Shown here piece after piece: positions 16,241-56,117 of a DNA stretch of 64,000 bases. The DNA is taken from the NCBI RefSeq assembly GCF_030684315.1, contig NC_081379.1, forward strand, positions 42,096,381-42,160,380. The letters run 5' to 3'. The DNA is from Stegostoma tigrinum. Taxonomy: Eukaryota. The number at the start of each line of letters is the position of its first letter. Position 1 is the stretch's first letter. The notes below the pieces were generated by a model. That model saw only the letters and a program-made list of their open reading frames with translations. It was not told the origin of the DNA and did no database searches. Position numbers and translations under genes: made by a program.

Positions 16241-16250
16241 ATGAAGGATT

Positions 16251-16964: not shown

Positions 16965-17283
16965 AATCATAGTATCCCGCCCACATGGAAAGAGGCTATT
17001 TGGCCCATTGAATCTGCACCAACCCTCCGAAGACCCGGCATCCCACACTATGCCCATAACCCTACAATAATCTTCACATCTCTGGATACAATGGGAAATC
17101 TAGCATGGCCAATCCAATTAACCTGCACATCTTTGGACTGTGAAAGGAAACCAGAGCACCCAAGGACAAACACACAGACACGGGGATAATACGCAAATTC
17201 TGCACACAGTCACCTGAGGCTGGAATTGAACCCAGATCCCTGGAGCTGAGGCAGCAGTGCTAACTACTGAGCCACCATGCCAC
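16965..17283 (-). mobile_element. HE1-type SINE
   Basis: Reverse complement starts GGCATGGTGGCTCAGTAGTTAGCACTGCTGCCTCA...GGGTTCAATTCC. Confidence 0.85.
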
Positions 17284-20099: not shown

Positions 20100-21537
20100 T
20101 TTACTGGTCTCAAACCCTTACTGCATCCCTCTAGCCTTGTAAGCTACACACCTATCATCATCCTCCCTTCCTTCTCCAAAGTCCTTGAATCTGTTTGAAA
20201 TGTGTCCCCATCATTTCTGTACGTCATGGGCTGAATTTCCATCTTGGATGTGGGAACATGAGCCAGGTCCATTACTGTGTCCTCGGCCCACTCTGAGACA
20301 CGGCTGTTGGGAGAAGCCATTAATCACCTGCAATTTTGCATCATTTAATTAACACGGAGGCAAGTTCCTTGCACAGTTGTAGGCGATGGGTGCAATCTCA
20401 AAGCTGGACGGCCAATCAGAAGAGTTCCTGGCTGCATATAAAGGTAGTAACTGGGAGGGCACGCCAATGAGAAGGTGCCCAATCAAACACTTTTTAAGGC
20501 ATTCTTGCCTAAAAAATAGGCACAATGTTGCCAGGCCACCGAAATGTAGTAGTCTGTGGATAGACATAGTTTCCACTATACAGGTGGCCTTTGGCTGCAT
20601 CCTCAACCAGCACGTCCGCCACCCTGGCCTGTTCCAATAGCAGCAAGGCTCAAATTCAACCCATGTTTAAATTCCTCTGGTCAAATATCCATCACTTTGC
20701 AATGTTGAAATGGCTGTCATTAATGTCACAAATTGTATCTTTTGTGATTTTTCTCTCTTTGTGATCTGTATGTAGCCTTTGATATCGTTGATCGCAGCAT
20801 CTCCTCCTTTGTCATTCTATCTTTATTGTTATAACTGAAAAATCATCTACAAAGCCTTCTCTACCTGCTCCTACAACATTACCTCTGAAGTCCCCATGGT
20901 ATCTACCTTTGACCACCACCTTTCTCGTCTACGTATTGCCCATTGGTCACATCAGATTCTACATTTATGCTGAGAAATCACAGCTCTACCTTGGTACCAG
21001 CTCACTTGGTATTCAGCCCCTCCATAGCTTCTGATTTCTTATGCTGCTTGTCTGATTCTGGATGTACAAGCATTTCTGATTAAATGTTTGAAGGCCAAAA
21101 CCTGTTTCCTAAGTGAACTCTGTTTGCAAACCACTGACTCCGTCCTACCATCTAACAATTTGAGAGTAAACAATCCTGACATCACAATTTTAAAATTTTC
21201 GTCCGATTTTCAAAACTTATTTCTACTTTCTTTCAAGTCTGCAACCCTTGAGCTTTCTGCACTTTTTCAGTTCTGGCCTCTTGCACAATCCCTATTTTAA
21301 TACTTCCCCCATTACCTCAGTCACCTAGATTCTTAGTTCTAGAACTCCCCCATTCACCTGTCTAATGCTGAAATCATATTAGGGCATTTCATAAAACCTA
21401 CCCCTTTTGAACAAGTTTTCATCATCTGTGCTAATATCTCATGTTGTGCAGTATCAAGTTCCGTTTAACAATAATTCTGTAAAGCACCTTGGGATGTTTT
21501 ATTACTTTAGAAGTGCAATAAAAATTTGAGTTGTTGG
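20100..21537 (+). mobile_element. L2-type LINE fragments
   Basis: IYAEKSQLYL (decayed YADD region) near 20960; L2 3' end gtaaagcaccttgggatgttttattact...gttgttg. Confidence 0.6.
20228..20662. mobile_element. MITE, possibly PIF/Harbinger type, inserted in the L2
   Basis: Terminal inverted repeats CATGGGCTGAATTT (20225) and AAATTCAACCCATG (20652), one mismatch. Confidence 0.6.
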
Positions 21538-22185
21538 CCACAAATATTTACATGAACCTCCTGACACCGATTTCTGATACTGTTCAGTAGTTCATTTTGT
21601 TGTGTTGTAAATAAATATTATGCCTTGTTAAACAAATGCTGTATGTAATAAATTTGAAACAAAAATGACACCAACAAAATACTGTATTGAATCCTTGAGA
21701 AACTTTACAATTGTGTGACTACTCTGCAAAGGCAGCTTTAGAATTGATTTGTATTCCTATCGTGAATATGCATCAAGTAGGAGTTCACGTACCACTATTT
21801 TGTACTGCAGATGACTACACACTGTTTAGCTATACCAAAAGCTATTGGATTCTCTAAGATCTTATTGCATAGTTTTTTCATATTCCTTGCTTTAAAGCTG
21901 TCCTAACAGGAAACAATTTGAGGGATTCACACTAGCCTGTCATTCAACTCTGTGTAAGATTTTCCTCTAAATAATATCAGGTTATCTATACAGTTGTCAT
22001 GATGCCAAACTAGTGAACTGCCCCATTTTCTCATTGTTTCATATGATTCAATAGTGCAAAAGTCTGTCCAAGAATAAATTAGTTAGGAGAAATCATTAAG
22101 ATTTCTTCTGGAAATGTGACCAGGCAAGAATTTTACTCAGGTTTGAATGTTAAGGAAGTTTTCTCCTAAATAAGTACCAAGGGAA

Positions 22186-22365
22186 GAATGGATGCTGTAA
22201 ATCAGAAACAAAGACAGAAATTGCAGGAAAAGCTCAGCAGGTCTGGCTGCATCTGTGAAGAAAAGTCAGTCAACATTTTGGGTCGAGTGACCCTTCCTCA
22301 GAGTCTTCTCTCCATGGATGCTGCCAGACCTGCTGAGCTTTTCCAGCAATTTCTGTTTCTGTTTT
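22186..22365. mobile_element. Fold-back mini-PLE with internal deletion
   Basis: cagaaattgcaggaaaagctcagcaggtctggc / gccagacctgctgagctttttccagcaatttctg inverted arms; minus-strand CUGAGGA-A-GGGUC..GACCC at ~22270-22302. Confidence 0.8.
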
Positions 22366-23730
22366 ATCCGAATTCTGTAGTTGATTATTTGCTGCACAAG
22401 GTCATGATTTCAATTCCTTCATTTTTTTTACGACCAATGGTCCATAATAAACAATCATTAAACAACTGCAAGAATTCTTTACCTAAAAGTAAACTACATC
22501 TTAATGTATGACCGCTTCCCTCCATAGAATACCCATATAGCCTCTGTCTTGGTTTCTTTATATGATATTCTTTCTTGATATTGCTTTCTATAGGTGTTGG
22601 TGAGTGAAAAGTATGCTTGGGGGAAAAAAACTCATCTGCATTGAATTGTCAGACAGTCACCTTTTGATTTTGTAACAAATAGTTTTCTAATAAATGTTCC
22701 AAGGAAAATGCAGAACATCAACCTGAATGACAAAGAGTGATCACAACATTCTGCTCTGACCGCTATTGCTTTTGGAAGGATTGGGAAAAATTGTTTCAAC
22801 CAGATTAATTGCCAACCATTGAGCTTTGACAAACCCTACAAATAATTTCTCCATCCGTTTTGAGGATCCTGTTTACTAATTTCTTTCATACTGTCAGGTT
22901 GAAACAAGAATCTCCAATAAGAACTCAGAAAATTAGCTCAATGACCTGTAAAATGATTGGTTGGTGAAATATATCAGTAATTATTAAGACTAGTGGAAAG
23001 GAAAATGTAATCACGCATCAAAATCTGCAGTGAAGGCGAGACAGACTTGCAGTTGTATTGCTTAAACAGACTTCTGTGGATGCAGTAGTCTAATTCGTCA
23101 CCAAATACTACATTTCTTGCAGTTGTATGACAGTGCAATCCAAGTCTTTGATTCTTTGGTGGACAGATTTTAGGAAAGTCCCCTTAGTTATTACTGTACT
23201 TTGAGAATGAATGAGATAAAAGATAGATTTCTTCACTGAGGGGGTTATTAGTTCCCCTATGGTGGTGTATGTTAGAATTCGAAATTGTATCATTTTATGC
23301 TTCATAAAATCACAATAGCCTTTGTTTCCCTTGCGTCCACCTTTTTGATTTCTCACGAGACCTAATGAGGAGTCAACTTTGATGGGAACATATATGACTG
23401 CTTCCCCACCCCCTTATAAATTTTCGGATACATTGACCTGTTTTATGCCAGACAAGAATTTGTTTAGTTGTTGGAGGATTATCTGAAAAATTTGGCAGAG
23501 GTCCTGAAATCTTCTACTGAACAACTACTTTTTGTTTTACTGTGGTATGTCACATCGATGCATATGTGAGATATAATCCATTGTAGATCATTGTCCCATC
23601 TGTATCTCTTGTATTAGTAATTGAAGAGTGGGTATTTCCTGGTGTTGCTAAAGAATATTTCAGTTTTAATTTTTGCTACGTGCCCCGCTTGTTTTCCAAT
23701 TTCTTAAATTGATTTTTTTCTTCCCTTAAG

Positions 23731-23847
23731 GTCTCCAAGTTGCCCAACCTACGATCCCTAAGTCAAGCACTACTTCTAGACATCATCGAGTCATTAGCCA
23801 ATCATATTTCAGACAAGCAGTGTGCAGAGCTGGGCTCAGATATGTGA
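23731..23847 (+). CDS. LZTR1: LZTR1 terminal coding exon (117 bp including TGA)
   Basis: cttaag|GTC TCC AAG ... GAT ATG TGA; [38 protein letters not shown]. Confidence 0.96.
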
Positions 23848-24190: not shown

Positions 24191-25177
24191 CCTTTAGCGC
24201 TTGTTAATTTCTGTGCTACAAAGTAATTATTTAGCAATCTTATTTCACTTGCTCATATATATTCTTATATTCTCTCTTTTTCACACCTAAAACTGGCAAA
24301 AAAAAATTCTAAAATTAGAATGAATAAGACTGACATTCCAAGTTGCATTCAAATGTCACAGAGGTATCAGTCTCAAGGCCTGGTAGCTTTGAGTTTCTCT
24401 AGTTCTCTGCTTATTGTCAGGTGATTATCTGAAGATGCAAACAGATTCCAGGATTTTAACTGAAGCACTTCCAGCAATGTCAGCCAGAATGTTACTCGAT
24501 TAATACTGTGCAAGTGGTTTAGTTTAATGGGACCTGATGTCAAAAAAAATGCCACTTGGTTCTCACCAGGCTTCTCGATTGGCAGCCTTTTATACAAAAC
24601 TTGAATGAGCCATGACGTTCATTATCATGACTGTTGTAACAATGTTTACAGGAATTGTATAAAGGTGTGTTCATATGAAATGTGATGACTGGTGTTCTGA
24701 AAGTGTAAAACAAATTGCATGATTTCATTAATTTTACACATGTAAAAATCTGAAAATAGAATCATTAATGCGGATTAGGTTGGAGGTTTCATGTCCTCTT
24801 CTGGCAGCAAATTGCATTGCATCTTGGTCATGTTCAGAAAACTTAATATAAAGCATCACTCTACTGTTAAATATGTAAAAACTTATACAAAGAGGTTTCT
24901 TTATAATCCATCTGTTAGAGCTGAAGCATAATCATTGTCGAAGATCTTAATTTTAAAAAAGTATGCAAATAAACACTTGTACAAACCATTTGTAGCAGAT
25001 TTGGAAAGGTTGTACGGTTCACTTGTTCATTAAGCTGTACCATCTGCATCTGAGGCCAACTAAAATTCCCAAGTTTTAATTCACCAAAAGCAGTCTTCAA
25101 ACAACCTTCTTGTGTTCTTAATTGTCAACCTTGGTGTGGGAATGATTAGATGGTATGCGTGTTGATTATTAAATACA

Positions 25178-27440
25178 TTTGGGTCAATTAGCTCAGTTGG
25201 ATGGATGATTGGTTTGTAATGCAGTGTGATCATAAGACATAGAAGTGGAAGTAAGGCCATTCGGCCCATCGGGTTCACTGCACCATTTAAATCATGGCTG
25301 ATGGACATTTCAACTCCACTTCCCTGCACTCTCCCCGTAGCCCTTGATTCCTTGTGAGATCAAGAATTTACCGATCTCTGCCTTGAAGACATTTAACATC
25401 CTGGCCTCCACTGCACTCCGTGGCAATGAATTCCACAGGCTCACCACTCTCTGGCTGAAGAAATGTGTCCTCATTTCCATTTTAAATTTACCCCCTCTAA
25501 TTCTAAGGCTGTGCCCATGGGTCCTAGTCTCCCTGCCTAACGGAAACAACTTCCCAGCATCCACCCTTTCCTAGCCATACATTATCTTGTAAGTTTCTAT
25601 TAGATCTCCCCTTAACCTTCTAAACTCTTAATGAGTACAATCCCAGAATCCTTAGCGGTTCATCATATGTTAAACCTACCATTCGAGGGATCATCCGTGT
25701 GAATCTCCGCTGGACACGGTCTAGCGCCAGTATGTCCTTCCTGAGGTGTGGGGCCCAAAATTGGACACAGTATTCTAAATGGGGCCGAACTAGAACTTCA
25801 TAAAGTCTCAGAAGCACATCACTGCTTTCATATTCCAATCCTCTTGAGATAAACGACAACATTGCATTCGCTTTCTTAATCATGGACTCTACCTGTAAGT
25901 TAACTTTTAGAGAATCCTGGACCAACACTCCCAGATCCCTTTGTACTTCTGCTTTACGAATTTTCTCACCATTGAGAAAATAGTCCATGCCTGTATTCTT
26001 TTTGGCAAAGTGCAAAACCTAGCATTTGCTCATGTTGAATTTCATCAACCATTTCCTGGACCACTCTCCTAAACTGTCTAAATCTTTCTGCAGCCTCCCA
26101 ACCTCCTCAGTACTATCTGCCTGTCCACCTATCTTTGTATCATCGGCAAACTTCACCAAAATGCCCCCAGCCCCTTCATCCAGATCATAAATATATAAAA
26201 TGAACAGTTGTGGCCCCAATACTGAACCCTGCGGGGCACCACTCGTCACTGGTTGCAATTCTGAAAAAGAGCCTTTTATTCCCAACTCTCTGCCTTCTGT
26301 CAGACAGCCAATCCTCAATCCAAGCTAGTAGCTCATCTCGAACACCATGGGCCCTCACCTTACTCAGCAGCCTCCCGTGAGGCACCTTATCAAAGGCCTT
26401 TTGGAAGTCTAGATAGATAACATCCACTGGGTTTCCCTGGTCTAACCTACTTGTTATCTCTTCAAAGAATTCTAACAGGTTTGTCAGGCATGACCTCCAC
26501 TTACTAAATCCATGTTGACTTGTTCTAACCCGACCCTGCACTTCCAAGAGTTTAGAAATCTCATCCTTAACAATGGATTCAGAATTTACCAAATACCAAG
26601 GTTAGGCTAATCGGCCTATAATTTTCCATCTTTTGCCTTGATCCTTTCTTAAACAAGGGGGTTACAACAGCAATTTTCCAATCATCTGGGACTTTCCCAG
26701 ACTCCAGTGACTTTTGAAAGATCACAACCAAAGCCTCCGCTATTTCCTCAGCCACCTCCCTCAGAACTCTAGGATGCAGCCCATCAGGGTCAGGAGATTT
26801 ATCAATTTTTAGACCTTTTAGCTTTTCTAGCACTTTCTCTTTTGTAATGCCTACCGTGCTCAACTCTGCCCCCGACTCTCTTTAATTGTTGGCATACTAC
26901 TCATGTCCTCTACTCCTGAAGACTGACGCAAAGTACTTATTAAGTTCTTCAGCTATTTCCTTATCTCCCATCACTAGCCTTCCAGCATCAATTTGGAGCG
27001 GCCAAATGTCTACTTTTGCCTCACGTTTGTTTCTTTTGAAAGGAACTTTTACTATCATTTCTAATATTACTAGCTAGCCTACCTTCGTATTTGATCCTCT
27101 CCTTCCTTATTTCTCTCTTTGTTATCCTCTGTTTGTTTTTATAGCCTTCCCAATCTTCTGATTTCCCAGTCCTCTTGGTCACTTTATAGACTGTCTCTTT
27201 TCCTTTGATACATTTCCTGACTTCCTTTGTCAGCCATAGCTGTCTAATCCCACCCCGCATAATTTTTCTTTTCTTTGGGATGATCACAACAACGTAGGTT
27301 CAATTCTGACACTGGCTGAGGTTACTATGAAAGGACTGTCCTTCAACCCTCCCCTTGCCTACGGCATGGTGACCCTCAGATTAAACTACTACCAGTCTTC
27401 TCCCTCTAATGAAAGAGCAGCATTATGGCAGTTTTACTTA
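25178..27440 (+). mobile_element. tRNA-derived SINE split by a CR1 insertion (halves 25178-25232 and 27281-27440)
   Basis: Head gggtcaattagctcagttggatgg continues after the CR1 as acaacgtaggttcaattc..; an intact relative lies at 29727-29930. Confidence 0.75.
25233..27280 (-). mobile_element. ~2 kb 5'-truncated CR1 LINE ORF2 with frameshifts
   Basis: KSPDPDGLHPRVLRE, NYRPISLT, QHGFSKWRSCLTNL, VIYLDFQKAFDKVPH, GAPQGSVLGPQLF, KFADDTKIGG; TSD TGATCA at 25227 and 27281. Confidence 0.96.
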
Positions 27441-31806: not shown

Positions 31807-31942
31807 ATAATAAAATGTGAGGCTGGATGAACACAGCAGGCCAAGCAGCATCTCAGGAGCACAAAAGCTGACGTTTCGGGCCTAGACCCTTGAAGGGAAT
31901 ATCTTGGAATTCTCCAGCATCTGCAGTTCCCATTATCTCATC
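31807..31942. mobile_element. Mini-PLE with 15-bp TSD, immediately upstream of the promoter GC box
   Basis: ATCAATGTTTCCAGG at 31792-31806 and 31943-31957; inverted arm with partial hammerhead (gacgtttcgggcctagaccct) joined to the 3' tail ctccagcatctgcagttcccattatctc. Confidence 0.85.
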
Positions 31943-31974
31943 ATCAATGTTTCCAGGCTGGGAGCACGCTGTTC

Positions 31975-32310
31975 ACACAGGGGCGGGGCGGCATGACCTT
32001 ACCAAGATGGCTGTCCAGTGGGGTCCGCCCCGAGCACCGAAGACCTCACACAACAAGCCCTCTTCCGATTGGTGGGTGTGTGGTTGTCAACGCCTGATTG
32101 ATCGGTCGCGTTATGAGCCACGTCTTATTGGTTCGTTCTGCGAGGAGGGAGATTTGATTTTGGGTTTTTGAAGAAAACGGAAAGAGAAGGTTCGGGAACG
32201 TCCGAGCGGGAGGAGAGCCCGACGCCTGGGGCCTTGTTGGAGCGGAACCGGAGCCGTAGGTTCGGGCCCTGTGGGAGCTGGAGCTGCCGCCGCTCTCTGC
32301 AGAGGTGATG
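31975..32310 (+). promoter_or_regulatory. CpG-rich promoter and probable non-coding first exon of the PRR11/MTFR-like gene
   Basis: GC box GGGGCGGGGC at ~31980; reverse CCAAT boxes ATTGG at 32068 and 32127 (imperfect ATTGA at 32097); CHR element TTTGAA at 32167-32172; candidate donor GAG|gtgatg at 32304. Confidence 0.75.
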
Positions 32311-32437
32311 AGCGGACCTGACCCGGCGGGGCCAGCGTGAAGCTGGTGCGGATCAGGCCCCTGATTTCACTGGGCCTTCTGTATGGTCACGCCGCTTGTG
32401 GTGGGAACCACTTACTGAGTATTATCACCGCAGAAAG

Positions 32438-33600: not shown

Positions 33601-35326
33601 TGCAGTCTTATTTTTCATGTCGTCCTCTTGCAGGGGGAGCCCTGGGTTAGCAGCAAGGGGAATCTGATCATTCACTGTTGATAATGAGTCATAATTTTAT
33701 TTGACATTAGCTGGCAGAAAAGGAAAGCATTTAATCTGACTAGTCAGATTAGTCTGTTTATGTCACTCAATATAGAAGTTAGTTGCAGGTGTCTTCCATT
33801 TTGTAAGACTATGATTTTGCATTATGGTAGTCACCTCTGTGCTAAACATTGCCATGTGTGACCCAGGAGTCCATTCTTCATTGCAGAGGAAGACATTGAG
33901 TTAGAAAGATGCAGGATTCATTGATCTATGTTTTCTCTGGTCCTCTTATTGACCAAATGAACTTTCCATTTCTGGTCGCCTTTTTTAATGTGCCACTAGT
34001 CAGCATTCAGAAGTCAGGGCCATCAGAACTGTCTCCCAGGTGCTTTTGTTTTTCTGACTGTTAACTCTGTGATCTATTGAGATTCTGAAGTATCGCTAGC
34101 ATTTGCAAAGCCTGCATTGTGAACTCCAATTTGTCCATGTACAATAACATTTTAAAAAATTTTTAGTCTTAAAGTTTTAAACACAGCATTTAAGCAAGCA
34201 TTTAAAATCCCATCCTTCCTTCTGCATTTTAAAAATTAAATTTTGCAACTTCAAGAACATATACACTCATCTTTTGAAATGTTGTAAGTCTTTTGTCTTG
34301 CAAATAATGTCATGGTTTATTGCTGGGAATCTGGTGTGCTCCCAAGTATTTATTGCTCAGACATGTTCAGTTTAATCTGAAATCTCAATTCCTATTTTCC
34401 TACTCAAGTGAATTCAACATAAAGTCTGTTGTTCCACCTTCCTTTGGCATTGGTACATCAAATTGTGCAGTTTGGCATGAGTATTTTGTTTATTACCTTG
34501 TTAACAACTTGGAATATCTTCAATAAATTATATCATATACACTTTCTACCCTCTCCATGCCTGCATTCCATCCAACTTCTATATTGTCTTCACCTTGGAT
34601 CAAATTTGTTTGTAATTCCAACTCATCAAGAACTTGCTACCCAAGGACTTGCCCAAACAAAAGTGCTAATTGTCACTTTTGTGGTCACCCATAAAAGTTG
34701 TATCATTATTGCCCTTCAGGTCTGATAGCACTTTTTTTTACCCGCTGGCCACATGTTGAAACCTACACTTTCAGTTCTTTTGATGGTTGCTTCTTTGCCC
34801 CACAGTTGGAGATTCATCTTTCAGCTACCATGCTCCCTTGCAAATTTTCTTCCAAAATAGTTTTTGCTTTCTGCCTTCAGAAACTTCCCGGATGTCTATC
34901 CTTGAGTTAGCCCTGGTCTCCTCTGAATTCCTTTTATTTACTGTACAAAAGTTCCTTTATTCCATTACTGACAGCACAGAAGGCCCTCTTTCCCTTTATA
35001 AATGCTCTCTGAGACTTGCTTTGTATCAGCAAACAATGAAATATATTTTGCCAATTTCATCTGAATGATGGTTTCACACGTAAAGGGCAGAGTTCTGCAA
35101 TTTGTGGGAGTCACTTCACTCAATGTATAAAGAAGACATTACAGAATGGTGAATCTTGCTGTCTCTATCCCCATCCCCTGGCCCAAATCTATTCTAGTCT
35201 AATGTGTCTACTGCTTCTTAGTTTTATCATATGGCCAAATGATGTCCTATAAACAAGAAATATGTGTCTGTGCATGTGTATAATAAATTGATCAGTAAAT
35301 CATCTTTGCTTTCCTGTTCCAGAGTT

Positions 35327-35551
35327 ATGATGGAAACACTAGAGGAATTTGATCAAGAATATCCTCTAAGCAAGATGTTCTGTAAACGCATAACCAAAGA
35401 AGAATTTGAGTCTGAAGCCCTGACCTATACTGAAAAGGCACTGCAGGACTTATTTCACACTATGGATCAGAACCCATCACTGTGTGAGAGAGTAGTCCGC
35501 AAACGAAAACAGGCTGAACTTGAAAAGGCTGGGTTGAAATCCTTTATTAAG
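35327..35551 (+). CDS. Uncharacterised PRR11/MTFR-like protein, coding exon 1 (NEMP-like helix, basic patch)
   Basis: ttccag|AGTT ATG ATG ... ATT AAG|gtactg; MMETLEEFDQEYPLSKMFCKRITKEEFESEALTYTEKALQDLFHTMDQNPSLCERVVRKRKQAELEKAGLKSFIK. Confidence 0.85.
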
Positions 35552-36098
35552 GTACTGTCAGCCCCACAAGATAGGAGAAATTGGGCCTCAGAATTCAACC
35601 TTTTTCTCATCATCAACCAAAACACAATTTTTGTGTTTTATCCTGGCTTCAATTTTGATTTTGCTGGCAGTGCTGTTTTCCTGATGAGCTAAGTTATTGC
35701 ATATATTAATCAATATATAGCAGCCAATTGCAAGAACAAAGTCGCCTATTTCAGATTACTTAGAAGTGCGATGAATTGCTAGAAAATGTTTTTAAGGCTA
35801 GGTACTGTCTGTAGATTCTGTCCTTGTTCTTGCAGTTTATACTATTCATTGTTAGGTGGAGCTCTAGATCAGGGAAACAGCTGATATGAGAGCATGGTTA
35901 TGTTAGCAAGTACAAAGGGAATTTTATTAAAGCCACAAATTGATGAGTGTAGTTTTGTTTTGAGGCTACTGCATAAAATTTAGCTACTTTCTTTGTGTGC
36001 CAGTGTCCTAAAAATAAAAGCCAAACTATTATCTTCAAAGTACCAATTTTGGTTCAGGTCAAGTCAATGTTTAGTACATATGAGCATTGTCTTTGCAG

Positions 36099-36222
36099 GC
36101 TAAATTTTTCACAGCTGTAGATGGTCGGCTGAACCGCTGTAATGCTGTTGGAATAGATGAATTACAAGAAAGACTCCAACACTTGAAGAACGAGATGAGA
36201 AAAGTTCAGATGTACGCTTGCG
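36099..36222 (+). CDS. Uncharacterised PRR11/MTFR-like protein, coding exon 2 (coiled coil)
   Basis: ttgcag|GCT ... TGC G|gtaaga; AKFFTAVDGRLNRCNAVGIDELQERLQHLKNEMRKVQMYAC; phase 0 in, phase 1 out. Confidence 0.85.
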
Positions 36223-38461
36223 GTAAGATTACCATTTTTAAAACAAGGCCAAAGTTGCAACTAGTGCTGGTTGAATGAGGAGTTGGGTGGGCAACTATGA
36301 GGCAACTGCAGAGTGTATTGAGGCAGTGTGAGTGGTTTCTCTTACATTTGACTTTTAAGGTTATTACTTGCCCACTTCAATCAACAACTGACTGAGAGTT
36401 TCAACTATATGGTAATGACAAATTTGTGAGAGTAGGACGAGAGCTGAGTTAGCATGCCGCAGGAATGCATCTTGTTGGACTGCGGTATTACTCCAGAATT
36501 TATTCTACTATGGATCTGGCATACAGCTGTTTGGTCCCCATAGATATCCATAATGCAAAGTTGTGGGATGTTTGTGACAACAGCATTGGAATGGTTTACA
36601 ATTTAGAAGTGAGTAGAGCAATAGTTAGAATGATGTTTTGGACAGATATAAAATGGCCATGTCTTAAATGAGTATTTGTGCAGTGCACATCAGTTTGAGC
36701 AGGTTTTTTGGGTCAGTAAATAGTACAATTTTCTCTGAGCAAGATTGCAGGATTTGTAGACCGTGGAAGGAGCATTCTTGATGTTGCCCAAACCCCATTC
36801 CAAAACTTCCAATAAAATCATGATAGCAGGAGAGACTCTGGTCAGTCAGGCTTGATGCACTGTGGTGCGTCTTAAATTATAACCACTTGTCTCCCTCTGA
36901 AGCAGGGAAACATACCTGTAGTCCCATCCGGGCTATAGTTGATGGTAGATGGACATCCATATAGGGAGCAAGCGGTTTCTTTATGGCCATATCCTTGTGC
37001 TGATTTGGCTCAGCTTTCCTGTAAGTGGTGCAAATCTGAACCAGTAAAAACAAAACTGCTGGGATACACAGCAGGTCTGGAAGCATCAATGGAAAAGGAA
37101 ACTGTGGAGGTTTTGCGTTCTTCATTAGAACTGGGAAAAGTTAGGAAGAGGGTAGAAGCAGAACAAGTAAAGGAAGGTCAGATTGGACGGAAAGAAGTTA
37201 ATAGGTTAAATAACGGAAGGTTAATGGTACAAGTCAACCATGTGGTAATAGTACAAATGAAAAGAAACCAAAGGTGTGACTAGAGGAGTTATGAATGACA
37301 GAAGAATTGCAACAAGATGAAAAATAATTTCTCCTGCCTTTGGATGGATGTTATATTTGAACTGGAATTTGGGTGTCCACATCAAATCTCATTATTGGTC
37401 ATCTTACCTCCAGTTCAAGATGGTGCAATAGGTTTGTGAGAGACAATGCAATAAAGTAGAAAATCCTATCCCTTGTGATGATTTGTTTTAAGCACCCTTG
37501 GTAACATGTTATATAACACCTATTGTAACTGTGTTCTCTTCCCTCAATCTCAATTAAATTATTGCATTGTGGAGAGAGATTGCATTTGGCTTTGGGAAGA
37601 AATTCCTTGCTTGCCTCTTGGTGAGGAAGTGTCATTTGCTCCTTGCAGGATTGGTGGTTTCAGTGATAAAGAAGCTGGGCAAGATTGGATATAACATGTC
37701 ACTGGCTCTTATTAGTGGATTTGCCTGGTTTTAAGCATTATTTTGCTATGCACTGTTGGGAATGCAAACAAAGCAAATACTGAAATCTTCCTTCACTAGT
37801 GTAACTACCCTGTTTCAAGCTGGTTTGCTCTTACTTGGACACATTTCCAAAATGTGGAATTTTGTAGTTGGCAATACCATACATTGTAATTAACTTGGCT
37901 TCAGTGTTGATCCAATTTGAAACACATTTTGTCACTGGGACATTAACAAGGACAACAATAGAATCTGGAGCAGTACTAAAATAATTAGTCAACAAAATGG
38001 CTAGTTTCTCAATATGATATGGTCCTAGTGTGGATTTAATTTCGTTTTTTTCTTAACTTTTTATAGCACCTCGGTATATCTTTTGAAACAAAAAAAACAC
38101 GGTAGCCACTACATATGAATATGTTAAGAACAGGAGTAGGCCCTTCCACCCTTTTGGCCTACTCCTCCATTTGATAAGATTATGATTGAGGCCTCAACTC
38201 CACTTTCCTGCCTACTTTCAATAACTATTGACTTCATTGTTAGTTGAGAATCTATCTACCTCTGTCTTAAAAATATCTGATGACCCTCAGCAGTTCACAA
38301 GAATCATGTCACAGTTAAATCTGACTTTTGTAACTTGGATGATGTGAGAATCTGGGGTGAAAAATAATCCATTGCTATGCTGATTTCAATTTCAGTGTTC
38401 TGTAGAAGTCAAGCTGTTGCATTTAAGGTTTAGTGTTCTTTGTGATATTTGTGCTTTATAG

Positions 38462-38670
38462 AGGCTAAAGAAAGTGCACAAAGGACCTCCAAGCGACTGG
38501 CTGAAAAGAGACAGAAGGAGCAGTGTGAGGTTTCTATGAATGAAGATTCCACGCTACCTTCAGTCACTGCCATTCCTCCTCCACCACCACCACTACCACC
38601 ACCATCTGTTTCAGCTCCCAGTAATCCAGCGTTTAAAACTCCTCTGAGAGGCAAATTGAACCTTCACACA
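38462..38670 (+). CDS. Uncharacterised PRR11/MTFR-like protein, coding exon 3 (polyproline)
   Basis: ttatag|AG GCT ... CAC ACA|gtgagt; (E)AKESAQRTSKRLAEKRQKEQCEVSMNEDSTLPSVTAIPPPPPPLPPPSVSAPSNPAFKTPLRGKLNLHT. Confidence 0.85.
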
Positions 38671-39020
38671 GTGAGTAATCAGCTTCAAAGGAAGCATGGC
38701 TAGAGTGGTAAGCTTGACGTCTGCTTTATTGTTTGTAGGTGCAACAGACTTGTGGGCTGGAGAAAGAGACTATCACTGAATGGAAAGTGCTCGGGAGAAC
38801 AGTATACAAAATCAGATGGACAAAGGAAGGTCTGAGTTTTTTCATGTATAAGGAAAAAAAAGGAAGAATTGCATCTACATAACCCCTTTCGCAAGTTCAG
38901 TAAACCTCAATGTACTTTACAAACGACAATGTATGTTGAAGTGTAGTCATTGTTTTAATGTAGGAATTAGTGCAGCTGATTTGAGCAACGGAAGGTTAAG
39001 ATTTGTTTTCTGTGTTGCAG

Positions 39021-39097
39021 AGAGAAGCAAAGGTTTTGGCAACTCCAGCTCTGTTGGACAGCTACGGACTGGGCAGGCTCAATCGACGCTGTAAAAG
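39021..39097 (+). CDS. Uncharacterised PRR11/MTFR-like protein, probable coding exon 4
   Basis: tgttgcag|AGA GAA ... AAA AG|gtgagg; REAKVLATPALLDSYGLGRLNRRCK; strong splice sites, open in phase 0. Confidence 0.65.
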
Positions 39098-39550
39098 GTG
39101 AGGAGATGGTATATTTAATTTGAAGCGTACTGATTAAAATTTAGAATTTGGCCTTGACTTTTGATAGCATTTCTCAATCCTGTTCAGTCTGCCTGGTGGT
39201 TAGCTATGTTAGTTTGTAGAGTGATAAATGGGGGCATCTAGCATTTTTGACTGAGAGCTCCACCTTTTATCCTCCTTCCTATTGATCCTAGTTCGGGGTG
39301 GCAATAAGACTGTGGATGCTGCTACTGACTTTTGGGGTGGGGAAATAGATTATCACCAAATTGAAAGCAGGAGGGAAAGTAGTTGGGAGGTAACAGAAAG
39401 CTATACGTCCTTACAGTTTGTGAACTGTATAGGTATGCTCCACACAACATTCAGAATTATGTTCAGCATTTAGTATGTCCACATTTTCCAGATATCAAGT
39501 TGCTAGCACTAAGATATCTTAGTATCCTACTTTTTGGGTTCATCTGACAA

Positions 39551-39752
39551 TAGAACATAGAACATTACAGCACAGTACATGCCCTTCGGCCCTCGATGTT
39601 GTGCCAACCTGTCATACCGATCTGAAGCCCATCTAACCTACACTATTCCATGTACGTCCATATGCTCATCCAATGATGACTTAAATGTACCTAAAATTGG
39701 TGAATCTACAACTGTTGCAGGCAAAGCGTTCCGTTCCCTTGCTACTCTGAGT
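39551..39752 (-). mobile_element. CR1 3' tail (same subfamily as 13648)
   Basis: tagaacatagaacattacagcacagtac..ggccctcgatgttgtgccaacc matches 13648-13840. Confidence 0.85.
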
Positions 39753-40034
39753 AAAGATAAGGCAATAATCTGGTTGTATTAGTGAAAGGATTTAAGGAAA
39801 GTTACAGAAAGAAAAATAGACTCAGATTCTTCTTTGCTGGATGGTTTTAAAATAGCTTCATTGTATTAAGTATTCAACACACTAAATAGATATTGCACTA
39901 AAAGAGAAGGATAAAATTACTTGAAAAAATTGACTATGTAGTTACATGTCAACCATTTGAGATCACATGTTCCAGTTTTGTAATGAAAAAGGAAATAAGG
40001 AAGAATGAGATTTCTAGAATGTGCTATATGGGGA

Positions 40035-40350
40035 GTCAACAGCCTAGTGGTACTTTCAGTAGACTGTTACTCTGTTCTGGAGACCTGGGTTCGAATTATG
40101 TCATGGCAGATGGTGGAATTTGAATTCAGTAAAAAGAAAATCTGGAATTAAGAGGCTAATGACCCTGAATCCATTGCCTTTTAATCCTTTAGGGAGGGAA
40201 ACTGCCATCCTTGTCAGGTCTGTACTTCATATGACTCTAGACAGCCACTGATGTATTTGACTCATAACTGCCTTCTGACCAATTAGGAATGGGCAATAAA
40301 TGCTGGCCTAGACAGCAATGCCATCATCCCATGAATGAATTAAAAATAAA
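40035..40350 (+). mobile_element. tRNA-derived SINE
   Basis: gcctagtggta A box, GGGTTCGAAT B box, gggcaataaatgctggcc..cccatgaatgaattaaaa tail. Confidence 0.75.
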
Positions 40351-40946
40351 CAATGTGTTTGCCTAAATGAGTATACCAGTAGTCACTGTACATTCTATGT
40401 ATTAGTTTCTGCTCAAAGATGGTCACTTAGACCACCATGAGATATGAACTCTTTGCATTTAAAGGTTTTATAAATCTCCTTCTTGGTTTGGTTTTTCTAG
40501 TGAGATCACGAAATGATTTTCTTCTGAATTTTCTATTCGTCATAATAGAGGCAGTTTCACAATGTAACAGGCTAAAATTCCCACTACCATAAAGAGGCCT
40601 AGGTTCACGTGATAAAGATGACTTAGAGCTTGTCTGAGCAGTAATTTGGGAGTACTGGGTGGAAGTTCATTAGTACGCTAAGGAAATGCAGCACAAAATA
40701 TTCATTCATTTTCATTTGGACTAGTGCAAATGTTGGAGTAACTTCATTCTGTGCCTGGCAAGTTTGGAAATTCTTGGAACTTTTTCTGGAAAAAACTTTG
40801 GTAGCCTAAATAGGAAAGGTGCCACTCTCATGTACATAACAGAAAACCTAAATCTAGAATTTGCATATGAAATAAATCGCACTAATTGAGCACTCTGTGC
40901 TTTTAATCTCTTTTTATGGATTTCCTTATAAGTGGTGTGCATCTAG

Positions 40947-41063
40947 TATTGCAGATCTGAGAGTTCCTGAAGGTGACAATAGCACTGAACCTGTCCAAAG
41001 TATCCACTCTGAACTTCTGGCTGCAAACCATTTTGAGAGACTACGATCAACAGGCATCCATCG
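40947..41063 (+). CDS. Uncharacterised PRR11/MTFR-like protein, coding exon 5 (WH2-like motif); acceptor position uncertain (40933 or 40947)
   Basis: (S)IADLRVPEGDNSTEPVQSIHSELLAANHFERLRSTGIH(R), donor CAT CG|gtatgt. Confidence 0.75.
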
Positions 41064-41599
41064 GTATGTCAAAAGCTTTGTTACGGTGTCTACCTGAAGA
41101 TGTGATCTCATAGTTACTACTGTTCTTCTAATTAGTGACATAGGAAAACCATTTTCAGAAATGGTTCCTCAGGACAAAGTCCCAGAGGTTTTCAGGGCAT
41201 TCCCAATGCAGTACGCTTGATACTTACACCTCCATTTGACCTGCTACGTAGAAAAGACTCAATCCTTGCACATCTCTATGCTGTCTGTTGCCGTATTGCA
41301 AACAGCTGTTAGTTTTTTTTTCTGATGTGGATCAGAATTCATTCTGAAGTAGGAGATCACAAAGATTAGGAAAGATATGAATAAAGCTAAGTTGATTGAG
41401 AAAGCCATAAGTGCTTCATTTAAACCAAAATGGAGTTGGGTAAAATAAGATGTAATGTAATGCCCAGTTTCAGAAGGAAGAGGGGCAGAAGATAGGGAAA
41501 CTATAGGCCAGCTAGCTTGACCTTGGTTATTGGTAAGATTTTAGAGCGCATTGAGGATGGGATTGCAGGGTGCTTGGAAGTGCATGACAAAATAGGACA

Positions 41600-41800
41600 G
41601 AGTCAGCAGGCCTGGCAGCATCTGTGAAGGAGTAGACAGAGTTAACGTTTCGGGTCCGGTGACCCTTCTTCAGAACTGACGGTGGCTGGGAAAACATCAG
41701 TTTATATGCAGAAAATAGGGAGGTGGGTGGGGTAGGGAGTAAATGATAGGATATAGCCCAAAGAGAGAGAAAGACAGTTGGACAGACAAAGGAGGTCTTG
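41600..41800 (-). mobile_element. PLE pseudo-LTR fragment nested in CR1
   Basis: Homologous to 5570-5800 in reverse orientation. Confidence 0.82.
41640..41677 (-). ncRNA. Minimal type I hammerhead ribozyme motif (best-preserved copy)
   Basis: Minus strand AGUU-CUGAAGA-A-GGGUC(ACCG)GACCC-GAAA-CG-UU-AACU; stem III self-complementary AACGUU. Confidence 0.75.
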
Positions 41801-43039
41801 GACAGACGAGGAGTGTGGGCAAAGAAGTGGCAGGTGAAATACAATTTGGGAAAGTCTAAAGTTATGCACTTTGGCTGGAAGGAGAGAGGCATAGTCTGTT
41901 TTCTGAAGCACAGAGGGACTTGGGAGTCCTAGTTTAGGATTCCTTTAAGGTTAACATGCAGGTTCAGTTGACTGTTAGGAAGGCAAATGTTAGCATTCAT
42001 TTCATGAGTGATATTATACAAGAGCAGAGATCTACTGAGTCTTTATAAAGCTCTGGTCAGACCTCATTTGGAATATTGTAGCATTTTGGGCTGCATATCC
42101 AACGAAGGATGTGCTGGCGTTGGGAGAGCGTCCAGAAGTGAATTACAACAGTGATCCTGGGATGAAGGGCTTGTCATGTGAGGTACAGTTGAGGACTCTG
42201 GGTCTGTAGTTGATGGAATTTACGATGAGGGGGAATCTGATCAAAACTTAGAATAATGAGAAGTCTGAAAAGCATGTAAGTGAAGAGAGACTAGGATCTG
42301 AGGGCACAGCCTGAAAGCGAAGGGATGTCCCTTTAGAACTGTGATGATTTTCTTCAGCCTGAGGGTAGTGAATCTGTGGAACTCATTGCCACAGAGGATT
42401 GTGGAGGCCAAATCACTATTTAAGACAAAGGTAGATGAGTTCTTACTTTTTAAAGGGGATCAAGGCTTATGAGGAGAAGGCAGGTGAGTGGGGTTGAGAA
42501 GTATATCAGCCATGATTGAATAGCAGAGTAGACTCGATGGGCTGAATGGCCCAATTCTACTTCTCTATCTTATGATCTAAAAGAGCACTTCGACCTAAAT
42601 AAGCCAGCATTGTGCACAATTGTTTGCTGGATTATTCCCAACTCTCTTAAATGCTGCACATATTTATGTAATTTTGAAGTTGTTTTCTGTTAATAAAACT
42701 AGATCTTAATAATTCCATCTAGTTTTGTGTTTATTGGTTATTGATGAAAATGAGGAATAGTTGCAGGTTGATTGTTTGAGTATGCACCTTTGTGACATAA
42801 TCTTAAACCAGTGATTAATATTCAACTAATTTTGTCTTTTCAATAGTGTTGTAAGAGTTGCTGAACATTTGATGTCAATGTCATAAAACAGTTCAAAGAG
42901 TCTGCTTTAATGTGGTACACAATCTGCAACACTGTCAACTAATCAACTTTACTGCTTCAGTTCCTACTGCATTATACCAACAATATGTCACTACCAAGAT
43001 TCTGCATTTAATTTCTAAACTGGAGTACTCTAGCATTTA

Positions 43040-43255
43040 TTAAAACAACAAAAGTGCTGATGGAACTCTGGTCAAGTTGCATCTGTGGAGGTATACACAG
43101 AGTTAACATTGCAAATTGAATATGACTTGAATTCTGTAGAAGATTAATATTGGATATCAAATGTTAACTCTGTTTCTCTCTCCAGCAATGTTATGGGACC
43201 TGTAGAGTGTCTCCAGCACCTTGTTTTCATTTGATTTTCAGCATCTGTAAAACTT
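43040..43255. mobile_element. Old fold-back mini-PLE
   Basis: gcatctgtggag..cagagttaaca / tgttaactctgtttctctctcca..cagcatctg inverted arms; cores decayed. Confidence 0.6.
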
Positions 43256-43445
43256 TATTTTTAATCTTGTAGTAAATTCATTTTATGTATTGTAAAATTA
43301 ACCACTTAAACTCTCCTTGATACCATTGGTTTCATTGCCTGTTGATCTCATGATGTTAACACTTATAATATCTTTCTTTACTAATTAAATCATAAAATAC
43401 ATATGTTTGTACTGAGTAACAATCTCCTGCTTGCTCCTTTTGTAG

Positions 43446-43647
43446 GTCTCCAGGTGGCACTCCATCCAAAATCCCCAAAAGTCAGCGAGTACAGGAAGGG
43501 GAAGTATGTTCTCCTGCATCTGCCTTTAATACAACATTATTGAATAAATTTCGCAATACAAAGAGCCCAATTGAGAGTGTTCCACGATCACCATCCAGCA
43601 GTGACAGTGAGAGTTCTGGATTCGCTACACCTCCAGGCAGCCCATGA
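43446..43647 (+). CDS. Uncharacterised PRR11/MTFR-like protein, terminal coding exon
   Basis: ttgtag|G TCT CCA GGT GGC ACT CCA; (R)SPGGTPSKIPKSQRVQEGEVCSPASAFNTTLLNKFRNTKSPIESVPRSPSSSDSESSGFATPPGSP*; RSPGGTP...LxxKF resembles the PRR11/MTFR2 C-terminus. Confidence 0.85.
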
Positions 43648-53362: not shown

Positions 53363-53515
53363 TCAAAGGTGAAGAATATCGGACAGCACCTCTCCACATC
53401 GAGCACTGATTTTCAGACTGGCCAGTGCATCTGCTCTGGTAACTCCAATATTCAGCAGTGCAATTGGTATCTTCATTTCATATGCTGCAATAACGAACCT
53501 ATATCCAGAATACAC
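53363..53515 (-). CDS. SIRT4: SIRT4 terminal coding exon (153 bp including TGA)
   Basis: aatag|GTG TAT TCT GGA TAT AGG TTC; [50 protein letters not shown]. Confidence 0.96.
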
Positions 53516-56117
53516 CTATTTATGGAGAACAAAAAGAATCAGCAATATTAGTTTATAAATCAGTCCATGAATGTGAAAAGTGGTTCTGAGTTTCACCTAA
53601 AACACAGAGATTCAACCTGTTCCCTTTTGGAATTTATTACTGTTTTGACTTCCACCACTCTTGGCAACGATAAATAATCATAACAACTCTATGTTTAAAA
53701 TTAAAAGTGCTCATCTCTGCTTTGGATCATCTGCAAATTGCCTTAAATCTGTAAGTCCCTCATTCTAGTTTACCTTTGAGTAAATCTCTTCTGCACTTTC
53801 TCCAAGGCCTTGACATTGTTCCTGAAATACGGTGTCCAGAATTGGTATAATAATTCAACTGATGCTTAAGCAGCAATTGTTAATGGTTTAGCATAACAAT
53901 TGCATTTCTTGCTTATAGGTAAGACTGCATCATTACCAGCAGAGTACAGTTTTCCAGGTCAGTGTCCATTTTATACAATTTTTACTTTTGCACAGAACGG
54001 GCCCTTCGGCCCACGATGTTGTGCCAAACATGAACCAAATAGAATTAATCCCTTCCACCTGCCATTGGTCCATGTGTCTCTATTTCTTGCATATTCATGC
54101 ATTTATATAAAAGTCCCTTAAATGCCCCTACTGTACCTATCTCCACCACCACCACCCCTGGCAGTGTGTTCCAGACTCCTAACACTAAAAATAAACTTGT
54201 CCCTCATCCCCTTTGCGCTTTCATCCTCGGTTTGTTCTTAAATTGGTGGGACTTTGTAGTTTGTGCTTGTGTGTCACAAGACAGAGAGCCCAAAACATCA
54301 AGTGGATACAATGTGTACTGTGATTTCATTCTGCTGCATTTTAACTTGCTATAACTATCATATTTCACCTGAGGTAGGTCTTTTAAGTGTACGGAATAAA
54401 TGTCTCAGAAAGTACTTAGCCATAGTGAAAGAGGAGCTGATAAGTGTGTAAAGAGGACTGAGGTGGATAATTGGGTGTTAGGGAGGAACAGCTGATTATT
54501 CTGCATGACAGACCGGGAATACAAGAATACAAGATACAAACACATGATTACTTTGTTTGAGAGAGAGTCTGATTACTATATTTGTCAGGGTGCAGGGCAG
54601 AGGATGGCAGAAGAACTGTTAGCTGCATATGTGGGTGGGATGATTACTGTGTTTGTCAGTGAATGAGACTAATTACTGAAAGAGGTGGTGGGGACAATGG
54701 AGTAGCTGATTACTAGGAGAAAGAGAGATGAGAGGCGATTATTACAGTGTGTTGTGGGATAGGAGCTTCACAGTCTTCTGTCAATGGGGAATATACAGAG
54801 CTTGGTTGAAATCCACAAAAGAACATGAAGTGTTAATATTTTACAAAATAGTACAGTAAAACATTCCATATTTACATGATATAATCATTCATTCTATGTT
54901 GATCTATGGTATATGAACTGAATGTTACAATTGATTATTGCTATTTTCTGGGGTCATGTTAATTTTAAAGAAAATAACTAGCTTTTATCATCTGCCACAG
55001 AATTAGATGGTGAGAAGTATGCACATTTTAAGAAAAAAAGTCATTAATTGATAGTTAATCCCCCACAATAGAATTTTGTTTTATTCGGTTTTCATTGATA
55101 TTCAGGCGAATGTTTCATATTATGTGAAACAATTTTGGAAGGATGGGAATGGATACAAGTATGGGGACTGATTTGATAATCCTGGGGGAGCAGCAATCTC
55201 ATTGAAAGGCACAGTGCAGTCTTAACACTCACAGTGCCCAGAATCCATTACAATAAGCAACATGGAAAACAGGTAACTTATTTTATAATGGGAGTCGATA
55301 GGACATGTTTGAACCATCTGACATTTTGAAAGTAAAGCACAACGTGCAAGAAAAAACCCAATGAAATATTTTGAAATCTCATCAATTGTTTCCAGTGGCT
55401 GGGGAATGCAAATATAAAAAGAGTGTATTTTCAAACCAAGGGCTGATCAATTAAGTCCGAGTGAGGTTACTCCCCTCTCAGGAATGCCTCATACCAGAGA
55501 ACTGTAACTCCTGTAGCATTCAATATATTTATTAAAGTTTGGATAGATGAATTTTTTAGCTCTCAAGGAATTAAGGGATATGGGGAATGGACAAGAGCTA
55601 AAGCCTGATATTGTACTAAATGTTGGAGCAGCCTCAATAGGCTGCACGGTCATCTACTCTTTTATTTATTGTGTCTGTGTCATGATCTCACATCAATCGG
55701 TGAGTTACAGAAAGATTGAAGTTAGACAATAGAAAAGGGGGGAGCCTGAACGTATAGTTTCTTTAACTTACATGGGCAACGTGAGTCTTGAACCAGCACA
55801 AAACATTGAGGGGAAATGTGACTTCATTTTACCAGATTACCCTGATATTGACAATTACAAACCCAACTGCAAGAATGTTAGAATTATTCTTCCATTAATT
55901 TGCATTATCTGAAGTTGTACTTACTAACATACTAAGATTTCTAATTAGTTAACAAAGAAGTAGCTCTTTAAGCCTGTGAAATTCAGACAAGGCAAACCAA
56001 AGAACTTTAAGAAATGTGTGACTGAGCTTATCCTGGTTTCCAGGCCACACTGTCATAGCAAAGTGATCATAATTTGAGCTTCCCTATTGGAAAATCATCA
56101 ATAACCTATTCACTCAC

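Follow-up and report, generated by a model that had tools for sequence, protein, structure and literature searches.

What does the uncharacterised plus-strand gene in a 64,000-nucleotide stretch of the Stegostoma tigrinum genome (the window) encode, and what might its product do? The original prediction described a soluble mitotic protein joining a NEMP-like helix to a polyproline run, a WH2-like motif and a PRR11/MTFR-type tail, which may link nuclear-envelope factors to actin. We find that the gene belongs to an animal-wide family for which neither a Pfam model nor a dedicated paper was found, and that it resembles known proteins in an N-terminal helix and in the tail.

Gene structure and candidate promoter

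The gene consists of six coding exons, all with GT-AG junctions, that together give a coding sequence of 954 nt and a product of 317 amino acids. This structure, as predicted, equals RefSeq LOC125464359 (Stegostoma tigrinum), the spliced product being letter-for-letter identical to its protein P0001; of the exon-4/exon-5 boundary combinations listed, one equals P0001. Exon 1 (35323..35551; coding 35327–35551, ATG at 35327), which is single copy in the genome, encodes residues 1–75, and exon 2 (36099..36222) encodes residues 76–116 with the end of the N-terminal domain and a long coiled-coil-like helix. The basic RxSxRL motif (38482–38499), the polyproline run (38572–38604) and the CDK site T176 are located in exon 3 (38462..38670). 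Exon 4 (39021..39097) encodes a linker with a short helix that is kept in sharks, ray-finned fish and a caecilian, and exon 5 (40947..41063) the WH2-like helix plus LRST motif (residues 227–247; 40990–41052). Exon 6 (43446..43647; stop 43645–43647) contributes SPGGTP (43447–43464), an amphipathic helix ending in KF (residues 274–288; 43513–43557) and a Ser/acidic C-terminal end, whose aromatic residue is kept in the family alignment. All six exons are on the plus strand. The motifs quoted in the original prediction are all present in the shark protein; LRSTGIHRSPGGTP is present in the product, and intron 5 splits its coding sequence.

Eleven other cartilaginous-fish proteins are orthologous across all six exons, with 69–82% identity. 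Among relatives, complete reading frames of 324 and 348 amino acids are found on contigs of at most 1789 nt and of 1248 nt, respectively, and a pig cluster has 213 amino acids on a contig of at most 1069 nt. Such short full-frame contigs, which leave no room for introns, are taken as spliced transcripts. Two read sets aligned to the window behave as DNA and have no exon junction among the 15 junctions listed, which speaks neither for nor against splicing. In 60 of the 150 listed relatives the match ends at one of the first two intron positions of the shark gene (34 plus 26), as is expected if these introns are old. The neighbouring gene on the minus strand is a Sir2-family member (Pfam E = 1e-48), presumably SIRT4, and the BTB/BACK-type exons upstream of the gene are assumed to be those of LZTR1.

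A CpG island at 31901..32400 (plus strand; GC 0.53–0.61, CpG o/e 0.65–0.99) probably comprises a promoter and a non-coding first exon, and we infer that it serves as the promoter of the shark gene. It contains three GC boxes (31981, 31986 and 32030), two reverse CCAAT boxes (32068–32072 and 32127–32131) and one TTTGAA hexamer (32167), which we take to be a CHR-type cell-cycle element. In the Hemiscyllium RefSeq model P0004 the protein is extended at its N-terminus, and tblastn aligns this extension with 32120–32272 (E = 7e-6).

In the protein, the N-domain is followed by the basic RxSxRL motif, polyproline, the WH2-like helix, SPGGTP and the second helix. AlphaFold2 predicted helices at residues 70–83 and 94–141, with pLDDT values of 83–97 across residues 11–120; R124 and R128 are conserved in at least 90% of 50 aligned members. 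In line with the prediction of a soluble protein, no transmembrane segment was detected by Kyte-Doolittle analysis of the 317 residues (best 19-residue mean 0.43). The abundance of S/T-P sites was likewise borne out: there are nine, and T176 and T256 are full CDK sites.

An animal-wide family with an eroded tail in amniotes

The unnamed family comprises 173 clusters at 50% identity. Its members occur in a sponge and in cnidarians at one end of the animal range, and in lamprey, birds and mammals such as koala, pig and donkey at the other. The gene had been suggested to be lost in mammals, which is wrong because members exist in donkey, pig, rabbit, koala and echidna; in the tree these nest inside the jawed-vertebrate clade. 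The five ape and macaque gene models examined look broken, and the family may therefore have escaped work on model organisms. Searches with locus identifiers of family members, mainly in the main texts of the open literature, found no paper. A word-index search with the tail matched only 13 cartilaginous-fish proteins; in the genome search, weakly similar polyproline matches were set aside.

Seventy-four of 164 family proteins have at least 240 amino acids, and among these the SPG-TP motif is present in 47, the KF helix motif in 50 and a run of at least five prolines in 43. By these counts, the architecture has been maintained in animals as far apart as sponges and amphibians. By contrast, all eight named amniote proteins of at least 240 amino acids are devoid of SPG-TP, and their tails score -5 to 17 bits with a profile made from motif-bearing members. 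By this comparison the reptile, bird and mammal members that were analysed have an eroded tail but have retained the N-domain, which suggests that the N-domain may have a task of its own.

Probable kinship of the tail with PRR11 and MTFR proteins

The predicted relationship of the tail with those of PRR11 and the MTFRs is likely. The shark gene, shark PRR11 and the C4 MTFR have in common an intron of phase 2 that interrupts the Arg codon preceding SPGG, and the tail profile scores 26.4 bits with shark PRR11 and 22.5 bits with the C4 MTFR. Atlas feature neighbours, which are leads only, include a WH2-domain cluster, MTFR2 and PRR11 (0.86–0.88). That the gene is the PRR11 orthologue itself was rejected, as the original prediction had anticipated, because the same genome has a separate gene at G000:C35:42172866 with a tail that we take to be of the PRR11 type. 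The family N-domain profile had no match in 30 kb of that locus, and the PRR11 N-terminal domains PF28520 and PF28521 gave no match in Pfam scans, the version of which may omit both. According to PMC8720695, PRR11 promotes F-actin assembly through Arp2/3, which it recruits, and its proline-rich region is required for filopodia. The term WH2 does not occur in that paper or in the other literature matches listed, and among the matches listed for PRR11 and MTFR1 no paper names both.

Three true MTFR loci are located elsewhere in the shark genome. The MTFR family PF05308 is not matched by P0001 at all, and even the best of the matches among 124 members (E = 7e-4) does not come close to the cut-off; shark PF05308 matches are confined to the surroundings of the polyproline run. 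The motif [FL]AD[IV], given as the Miro-binding motif of MTFRs in PMC10897228, occurs in one of 164 family proteins and not in the shark query. MTFRs localize to the mitochondrial surface and bind ARMC1 according to PMC11980836, where their mechanism is called unclear.

A predicted actin-binding segment

The claim of a WH2 motif stands in part. When the family profile was compared with PDB sequences, the motif lined up with the WH2 at the C-terminus of leiomodin-2 (E = 0.0059); polyproline accounts for part of this match (bias 13.5), which ranked under a huntingtin fusion. Both the leiomodin-2 and the family alignments show an amphipathic helix with an L-basic-basic-T/V-type motif after it, and the helix preceding LRST is maintained from sponge to amphibian. 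Pfam WH2 itself, however, had no match in the exons, the 13 cartilaginous-fish proteins or 16 chosen proteins and exons at E ≤10, and it is outside the 25 commonest families among 124 members. One sea-star member has a weak Pfam Thymosin match at the WH2-like motif (E = 0.093). When a tail-only profile built from 20 members was compared with the PDB at E ≤10, the one match was to an unrelated protein and none was to a WH2 protein.

The complex predicted for tail residues 222–296 with actin scored 0.72, compared with 0.01 for the best of three controls, these being folded proteins rather than amphipathic disordered peptides and the actin a 96%-identical stand-in. In calibration, 51 of 78 solved complexes and 2 of 108 mismatched pairs reached the score mark (71 of 105 and 2 of 126 for eukaryotes); the prediction runs have at least 22% of contacts in common, and the pLDDT of the partner is at least 38. 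The model confidently places residues 227–238, but not LRST or the second helix, in the cleft that separates subdomains 1 and 3 of actin. The predicted contacts on actin (144–149, 168–169, 346–356 and 376) correspond to the known WH2 site. Since WH2 and actin are a textbook pair, the predicted complex may owe its score to memorisation by the predictor. With this reservation, the tail is predicted to bind actin via the WH2 cleft. The order of tail elements also fits that of the VCA regions of Arp2/3 activators such as WASP, JMY and WHAMM, but the tail-only profile gave no supporting PDB sequence match, and the acidic Trp motif of canonical VCA regions is absent from the shark protein.

The N-terminal helix

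Residues 14–56 (35366..35494, plus strand) form a helix motif that matches three DEPDC-type last exons over 43 columns (hhalign probability 95.7%) and NEMP over 29 columns at residues 20–48 (93.0%). Profile scores are 28.7–32.1 bits for the DEPDC type and 19.3–20.5 bits for NEMP, and none of 1000 shuffles reached either. At the sequence level, the helix thus fits DEPDC-type last exons better than NEMP. We assume that the matched DEP-domain genes represent the DEPDC1/1B/4/7 and LET-99 family; to our knowledge, such proteins are not known as nuclear-envelope proteins. For a fourth DEP gene (C1), no motif exon was found in the 60 kb analysed. Direct comparison of DEPDC with NEMP yielded a probability of 3.5% with profiles of only three and two sequences, although a Pfam NEMP match with E = 0.076 was obtained for one DEPDC exon. 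Literature searches found no binding partner of the DEPDC helix and, among the matches listed, no paper combining NEMP1, DEPDC1 and LET-99.

NEMP is the Pfam family touched most often (36 of 124 members at E ≤1, best 3.4e-4), and it is its first nucleoplasmic helix that the family matches, under the Pfam cut-off. Extension of the likeness across the whole of NEMP region B was tried and rejected: the second half scores -2.0 bits, and 470 of 1000 shuffles were equally good. A loose BAF-site pattern matches only the variable linker past SPGGTP. The N-domain had no Foldseek match in the PDB at E ≤0.001 and no significant sequence match; its best VIA match (Z 6.8, rmsd 9.7, 113 residues aligned) was to generic helical hairpins, and an Atlas search with residues 1–120 returned no usable feature match and weak structure rows only.

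Proposed function and alternatives

We consider it slightly more probable than not that the protein is an adaptor for actin monomers that is targeted within the cell and likely regulated by the cell cycle. Its helical N-terminal domain would anchor it to a defined place in the cell, and the PRR11/MTFR-type tail would bind actin through the leiomodin-like WH2 helix. Polyproline runs hand over monomers to WH2 motifs in leiomodin and WASP-family proteins; the run in the shark protein may similarly gather profilin-actin or SH3/EVH1 partners and pass monomers to the helix. The second helix and the Ser/acidic end might take the roles that the C and A segments of VCA have toward Arp2/3, and phosphorylation of the SP/TP sites directly after LRST could switch activity in the cell cycle. 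The signs of a mitotic role are indirect, consisting of S/T-P sites and one hexamer (TTTGAA) that is unconserved as far as seen.

The tail could, however, be a phospho-regulated dock for a non-actin partner common to PRR11 and the MTFRs, in a cell-division scaffold that uses its DEPDC1/LET-99-type helix in spindle orientation and at the cortex. That SPGGTP and KF, rather than the WH2-like helix, are the most conserved tail columns speaks for such a dock, as do the three matching DEPDC-type last exons, the loss of the WH2-like part in amniote copies in which the N-domain persists, and the report that Depdc1b and LET-99 orient cell divisions (PMC12705688). Against it are the long conservation of the helix before LRST, its docking on actin in the model, and the failure of literature searches to reveal a DEPDC helix partner; we regard this reading as fairly unlikely, and it can hold together with the actin adaptor.

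Recruitment by the NEMP-like helix to nuclear-envelope factors (RanGTP, BAF, lamin), linking them to actin in mitosis, is considerably less probable. The frequent NEMP matches and the hhalign result argue for it, and the basic clusters could be import signals; yet the protein has no transmembrane segment, and PMC4422613 states that Ran is not bound by either half of region B in isolation and that Ran/BAF binding needs the complete region including the BAF site. With a likeness limited to a single helix and a better match to DEPDC-type proteins, the nuclear-envelope role of the original prediction is unsupported. Least probable of all is a diverged fourth MTFR working at mitochondria. Such a protein would explain the common tail and intron and the automatic RefSeq/UniRef name 'mitochondrial fission regulator 1-like' of 4 of the 13 cartilaginous-fish proteins and a hemichordate, but not the poor PF05308 matches, the near absence of [FL]AD[IV] and the presence of three true MTFR loci elsewhere.

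Returning to the actin adaptor, the tail and intron common to the family, PRR11 and MTFRs suggest that an ancestral tail was joined to differing targeting heads, i.e. the family N-domain, the Miro-binding MTFR head and the PRR11 head. It is tempting to speculate further, although we find it rather doubtful, that the three MTFRs, PRR11 and the family described here belong to a single, so far unrecognised clan of actin regulators of the WH2/VCA type, each with its own targeting head. The mitochondrial fission driven by MTFRs and the cancer effects of PRR11 would then both depend on direct contact with actin, and the N-terminal helix would serve the family, DEPDC1/LET-99 and NEMP as an unnamed docking motif for one cell-division partner. 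The family gene would be ancient in animals, with its actin tail lost in amniotes, and broken in Old World monkeys and apes. If actin-binding, the common tail would make PRR11 and MTFR1/2 direct actin binders, and the common helix may link the family, the DEPDC/LET-99 proteins that orient the spindle, and NEMP, a fertility protein, to one partner.

Comparison with known systems

Likeness to NEMP1 and NEMP2 (PF10225), of which the shark genome has two true loci elsewhere, is limited to one helix of 26–29 residues, and their transmembrane region A has no counterpart in the shark protein. In DEPDC1/1B/4/7, about 43 last-exon residues match, among them the F/Y-C lead-in and the helix after it, yet the motif is C-terminal there and N-terminal here, and the DEP and RhoGAP-like domains of these proteins are absent from the shark protein in the Pfam scan. 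Leiomodin-2 has polyproline followed by WH2, as in the family, and the same predicted actin cleft; its tropomodulin and LRR actin-binding domains are not found in the family, which has one motif only. MTFR1, MTFR2 and MTFR1L (PF05308) have the same tail order, the C4 paralogue also SPGGTP and the intron position, whereas the shark protein has the N-domain of its own family and neither a PF05308 N-terminal match nor the Miro-binding motif. PRR11, a separate gene on another contig, has three WH2-like repeats in shark compared with one in the family protein, and has in common with it the polyproline run, the WH2-like helix with basic motif, SPGGTP and the second helix ending in KF.

Results

Gene structure and surroundings

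Six coding exons (35327-35551, 36099-36222, 38462-38670, 39021-39097, 40947-41063 and 43446-43647), when spliced in silico, add up to 954 nt and encode 317 aa, exactly the protein of RefSeq LOC125464359 (Stegostoma tigrinum), which bears out the single six-exon reading frame of the original prediction. A genome search found exon 1 in one copy only. Over the full length, identity to 11 further proteins from cartilaginous fish is 69-82%. Complete reading frames of relatives were found on contigs too short to hold introns, and these contigs are therefore read as spliced transcripts. The CpG island at 31.9-32.4 kb is likely to mark the 5' end because the gene model of a relative begins in the corresponding DNA. 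Short candidate elements in the putative promoter, CCAAT boxes and one TTTGAA hexamer, would fit a G2/M gene. At position 43580, both sequencing runs examined have C, not T, at full depth, so that residue 296 becomes Ala rather than Val, matching the other sharks.

The gene is flanked by BTB/BACK-type exons of a neighbouring gene (4238-23845, plus strand), which we take to be LZTR1, and by a Sir2-family gene (53366-56912, minus strand; Pfam SIR2, E 1e-48), presumably SIRT4. Intronic and intergenic transposon-like fragments, which resemble a DDE transposase and LINE-type reverse transcriptases, lie at 2530-3388, 13775-16828, 25084-26881, 41530-42540 and 57325-58551; repeat depth is very high at 39.4-42.6 kb. 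Elsewhere, contig C5 carries at least six actin genes (L054-L059) in two clusters, at 96.2 Mb and 127.6-127.7 Mb, with residues 42-375 within a single exon, and several intronless actin-related frames occur outside these clusters.

An animal-wide family retained in mammals

A 9-sequence profile covering residues 1-135 matched 173 clusters (50% identity) at E ≤0.001 and 125 at ≤1e-10. Species names were looked up for 30 of the 150 clusters listed. They include sponge (Sycon), Nematostella, Hydractinia, chiton, Lingula, sea star, acorn worm and amphioxus; lamprey, gar and newt; lizard, kiwi/emu, condor, echidna, koala, rabbit, pig and donkey; and, among primates, two macaques, two gibbons and orangutan. 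A separate search added paddlefish, sturgeon, arowana and caecilian. The names looked up do not cover insects, nematodes, rodents or most teleosts, which does not imply absence there. Nearly all of those named are labelled 'uncharacterized'. In a midpoint-drawn tree of 37 N-terminal domains, hand-picked from 124 aligned and including one long branch, vertebrates (95/93), jawed vertebrates (98/97) and mammals (97/92) form starred clades. Given the mammalian members and their starred clade, the gene is still present in mammals, contrary to the suggestion that it may have been lost there. In newt P0021 (924 aa) the WH2-like motif is duplicated, and about 600 additional residues are rich in Pro and Ser. 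P0163 and P0187 (from a cluster of 28) show a long branch, Asn/Thr runs and two WH2-like motifs; this member may be non-animal.

The SPG-TP motif is missing from all eight named amniote proteins of at least 240 aa. These proteins score -5 to 17 bits with the tail profile, compared with 55-88 for the motif-bearing non-amniotes tested (Hydractinia, 17.5), a gap inflated by the profile having been built from motif-bearing members. Five catarrhine models from gibbon, siamang, orangutan and macaque (P0077, P0092, P0125, P0140 and P0143) are short (111-234 aa) and frame-broken; comparison with donkey, by alignment for three of them and by eye for two, shows that they diverge no earlier than the end of exon 1. 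These gene models suggest that the gene decayed in Old World primates, with the caveat that odd models tend to be chosen as cluster representatives and that the pig or donkey cluster could conceal an intact copy.

The helical head

AlphaFold2 (124 sequences) predicts four helices in the N-terminal head (24-48, 50-67, 70-83 and 94-141; pLDDT mostly 83-97) and disorder elsewhere, apart from two short helical stretches, 231-237 and 274-287; the model has a mean pLDDT of 71 and a pTM of 0.46. A fold search with the predicted head gave no match. Among weak Pfam matches, NEMP came up most often (in 36 of 124 members, best E 3.4e-4), but it spanned only 26-29 residues. The proposed NEMP likeness holds for this one segment and does not extend into the following part of NEMP region B, which did not match the head. 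According to PMC4422613, Ran binding by NEMP requires the entire region B and the BAF site.

A weak genome match (E 6) pointed to the final exon of a gene that also has a DEP-domain exon, 36 kb upstream, and two paralogous exons lie 23 and 21 kb downstream of DEP exons (the three motif exons are L037:1480-1707 and, both on the minus strand, L038:1501-1755 and L039:1516-1764). We take these genes to be DEPDC7/4/1. Their exons match the head over a longer stretch and with higher scores than NEMP does: the N-terminal profile gives 31.0, 32.1 and 28.7 bits (NEMP, 20.5 and 19.3) and hhalign 95.7% over 43 columns (NEMP, 93.0% over 29). Rescaled to all six frames of the genome, a search space about 19,000 times larger, the E-values are about 0.001-0.01 for the DEPDC-type exons and about 5-8 for NEMP. 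None of 1000 shuffles reached the DEPDC-type or NEMP scores in either case, a control for composition alone as the exons were picked by likeness. Past the common helix, the DEPDC-type exons weakly resemble the very start of the family (profile positions 4-12), which could be circular permutation or chance.

The tail and its likeness to PRR11, MTFR and actin binders

An acceptor plus SPGGTP pattern occurs at 14 sites genome-wide, compared with 2 for a control pattern; of the 13 sites outside the gene under study, that on contig C35 alone was examined further. It runs into a last exon of PRR11 type, upstream of which are a polyproline exon and three exons of helix-plus-LKK type (L031:3958-4428, 5653-5847, 5831-6034, 7586-7708 and 9323-9529), and we presume this gene to be PRR11. 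As the original prediction had considered, the gene under study is thus not the ordinary PRR11 orthologue. With three MTFR loci (C4, C5 and C28) and two NEMP loci (C9 and C64) also present, orthology to PRR11, MTFR or NEMP was rejected. None of the 13 shark, ray and chimaera members scanned has a Pfam match above the family cut-off.

A phase-2 intron within the Arg codon preceding SPGG is common to the gene under study, shark PRR11 and the C4 MTFR. Among 8449 translated segments of the fetched loci, the tail profile matched two exons of the gene under study and, apart from these, only PRR11 at 26.4 bits and the MTFR on C4 at 22.5 bits. Common descent of the three tails would account for this most simply. 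The likeness is not wholly new, as automatic pipelines label some members 'MTFR-like'.

The original prediction had also proposed an actin-binding WH2 motif after the polyproline run. In its favour, WH2 of leiomodin-2 aligns with the helix preceding LRST (E 0.0059, to which polyproline contributes in part), and residues 222-296 scored 0.72 in complex prediction with a stand-in actin 96% identical to that of the shark (best control, 0.01). The threshold is reached by 51 of 78 solved complexes and 2 of 108 mismatched pairs; contact agreement between runs was at least 22% and partner pLDDT at least 38. Residues 227-238 are placed on actin 144-149, 168-169 and 346-356, presumably the WH2 cleft. 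Against it, Pfam WH2 was never reported for the family exons and proteins scanned, and the tail-only profile found no WH2 protein. Since similar complexes have already been solved, the predicted complex demonstrates likeness rather than binding.

Discussion

The product is most likely a soluble adaptor whose helical head would dock it in the cell, while the polyproline run and WH2-like helix, for which actin binding is predicted, would bind actin monomers or hand them on, possibly with profilin. The second helix may assist Arp2/3, and proline-directed phosphorylation beside the actin site, perhaps by CDK, might act as a switch. The analysis establishes the gene, its family, the order of elements and the common intron; actin binding is a prediction, and the parts assigned to profilin, Arp2/3, CDK and a partner of the head are inferred. 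The literature searched, with most subscription papers beyond reach, yielded no description of the family and its N-terminal domain, of the link between head and DEPDC C-terminus, or of a WH2 reading of the PRR11/MTFR tail.

Among the systems that the two halves resemble, Depdc1b and LET-99 set the orientation of cell divisions (PMC12705688). MTFRs reach mitochondria via a Miro-binding motif and ARMC1 (PMC10897228 and PMC11980836); the gene under study differs in lacking this motif. In each of the three MTFR loci (L010, L017 and L053) the polyproline run is followed by a single helix-plus-basic motif that resembles the predicted actin-binding motif described here; shark PRR11 has three such motifs. 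PRR11 is reported to recruit Arp2/3, its proline-rich region being required for filopodia (PMC8720695).
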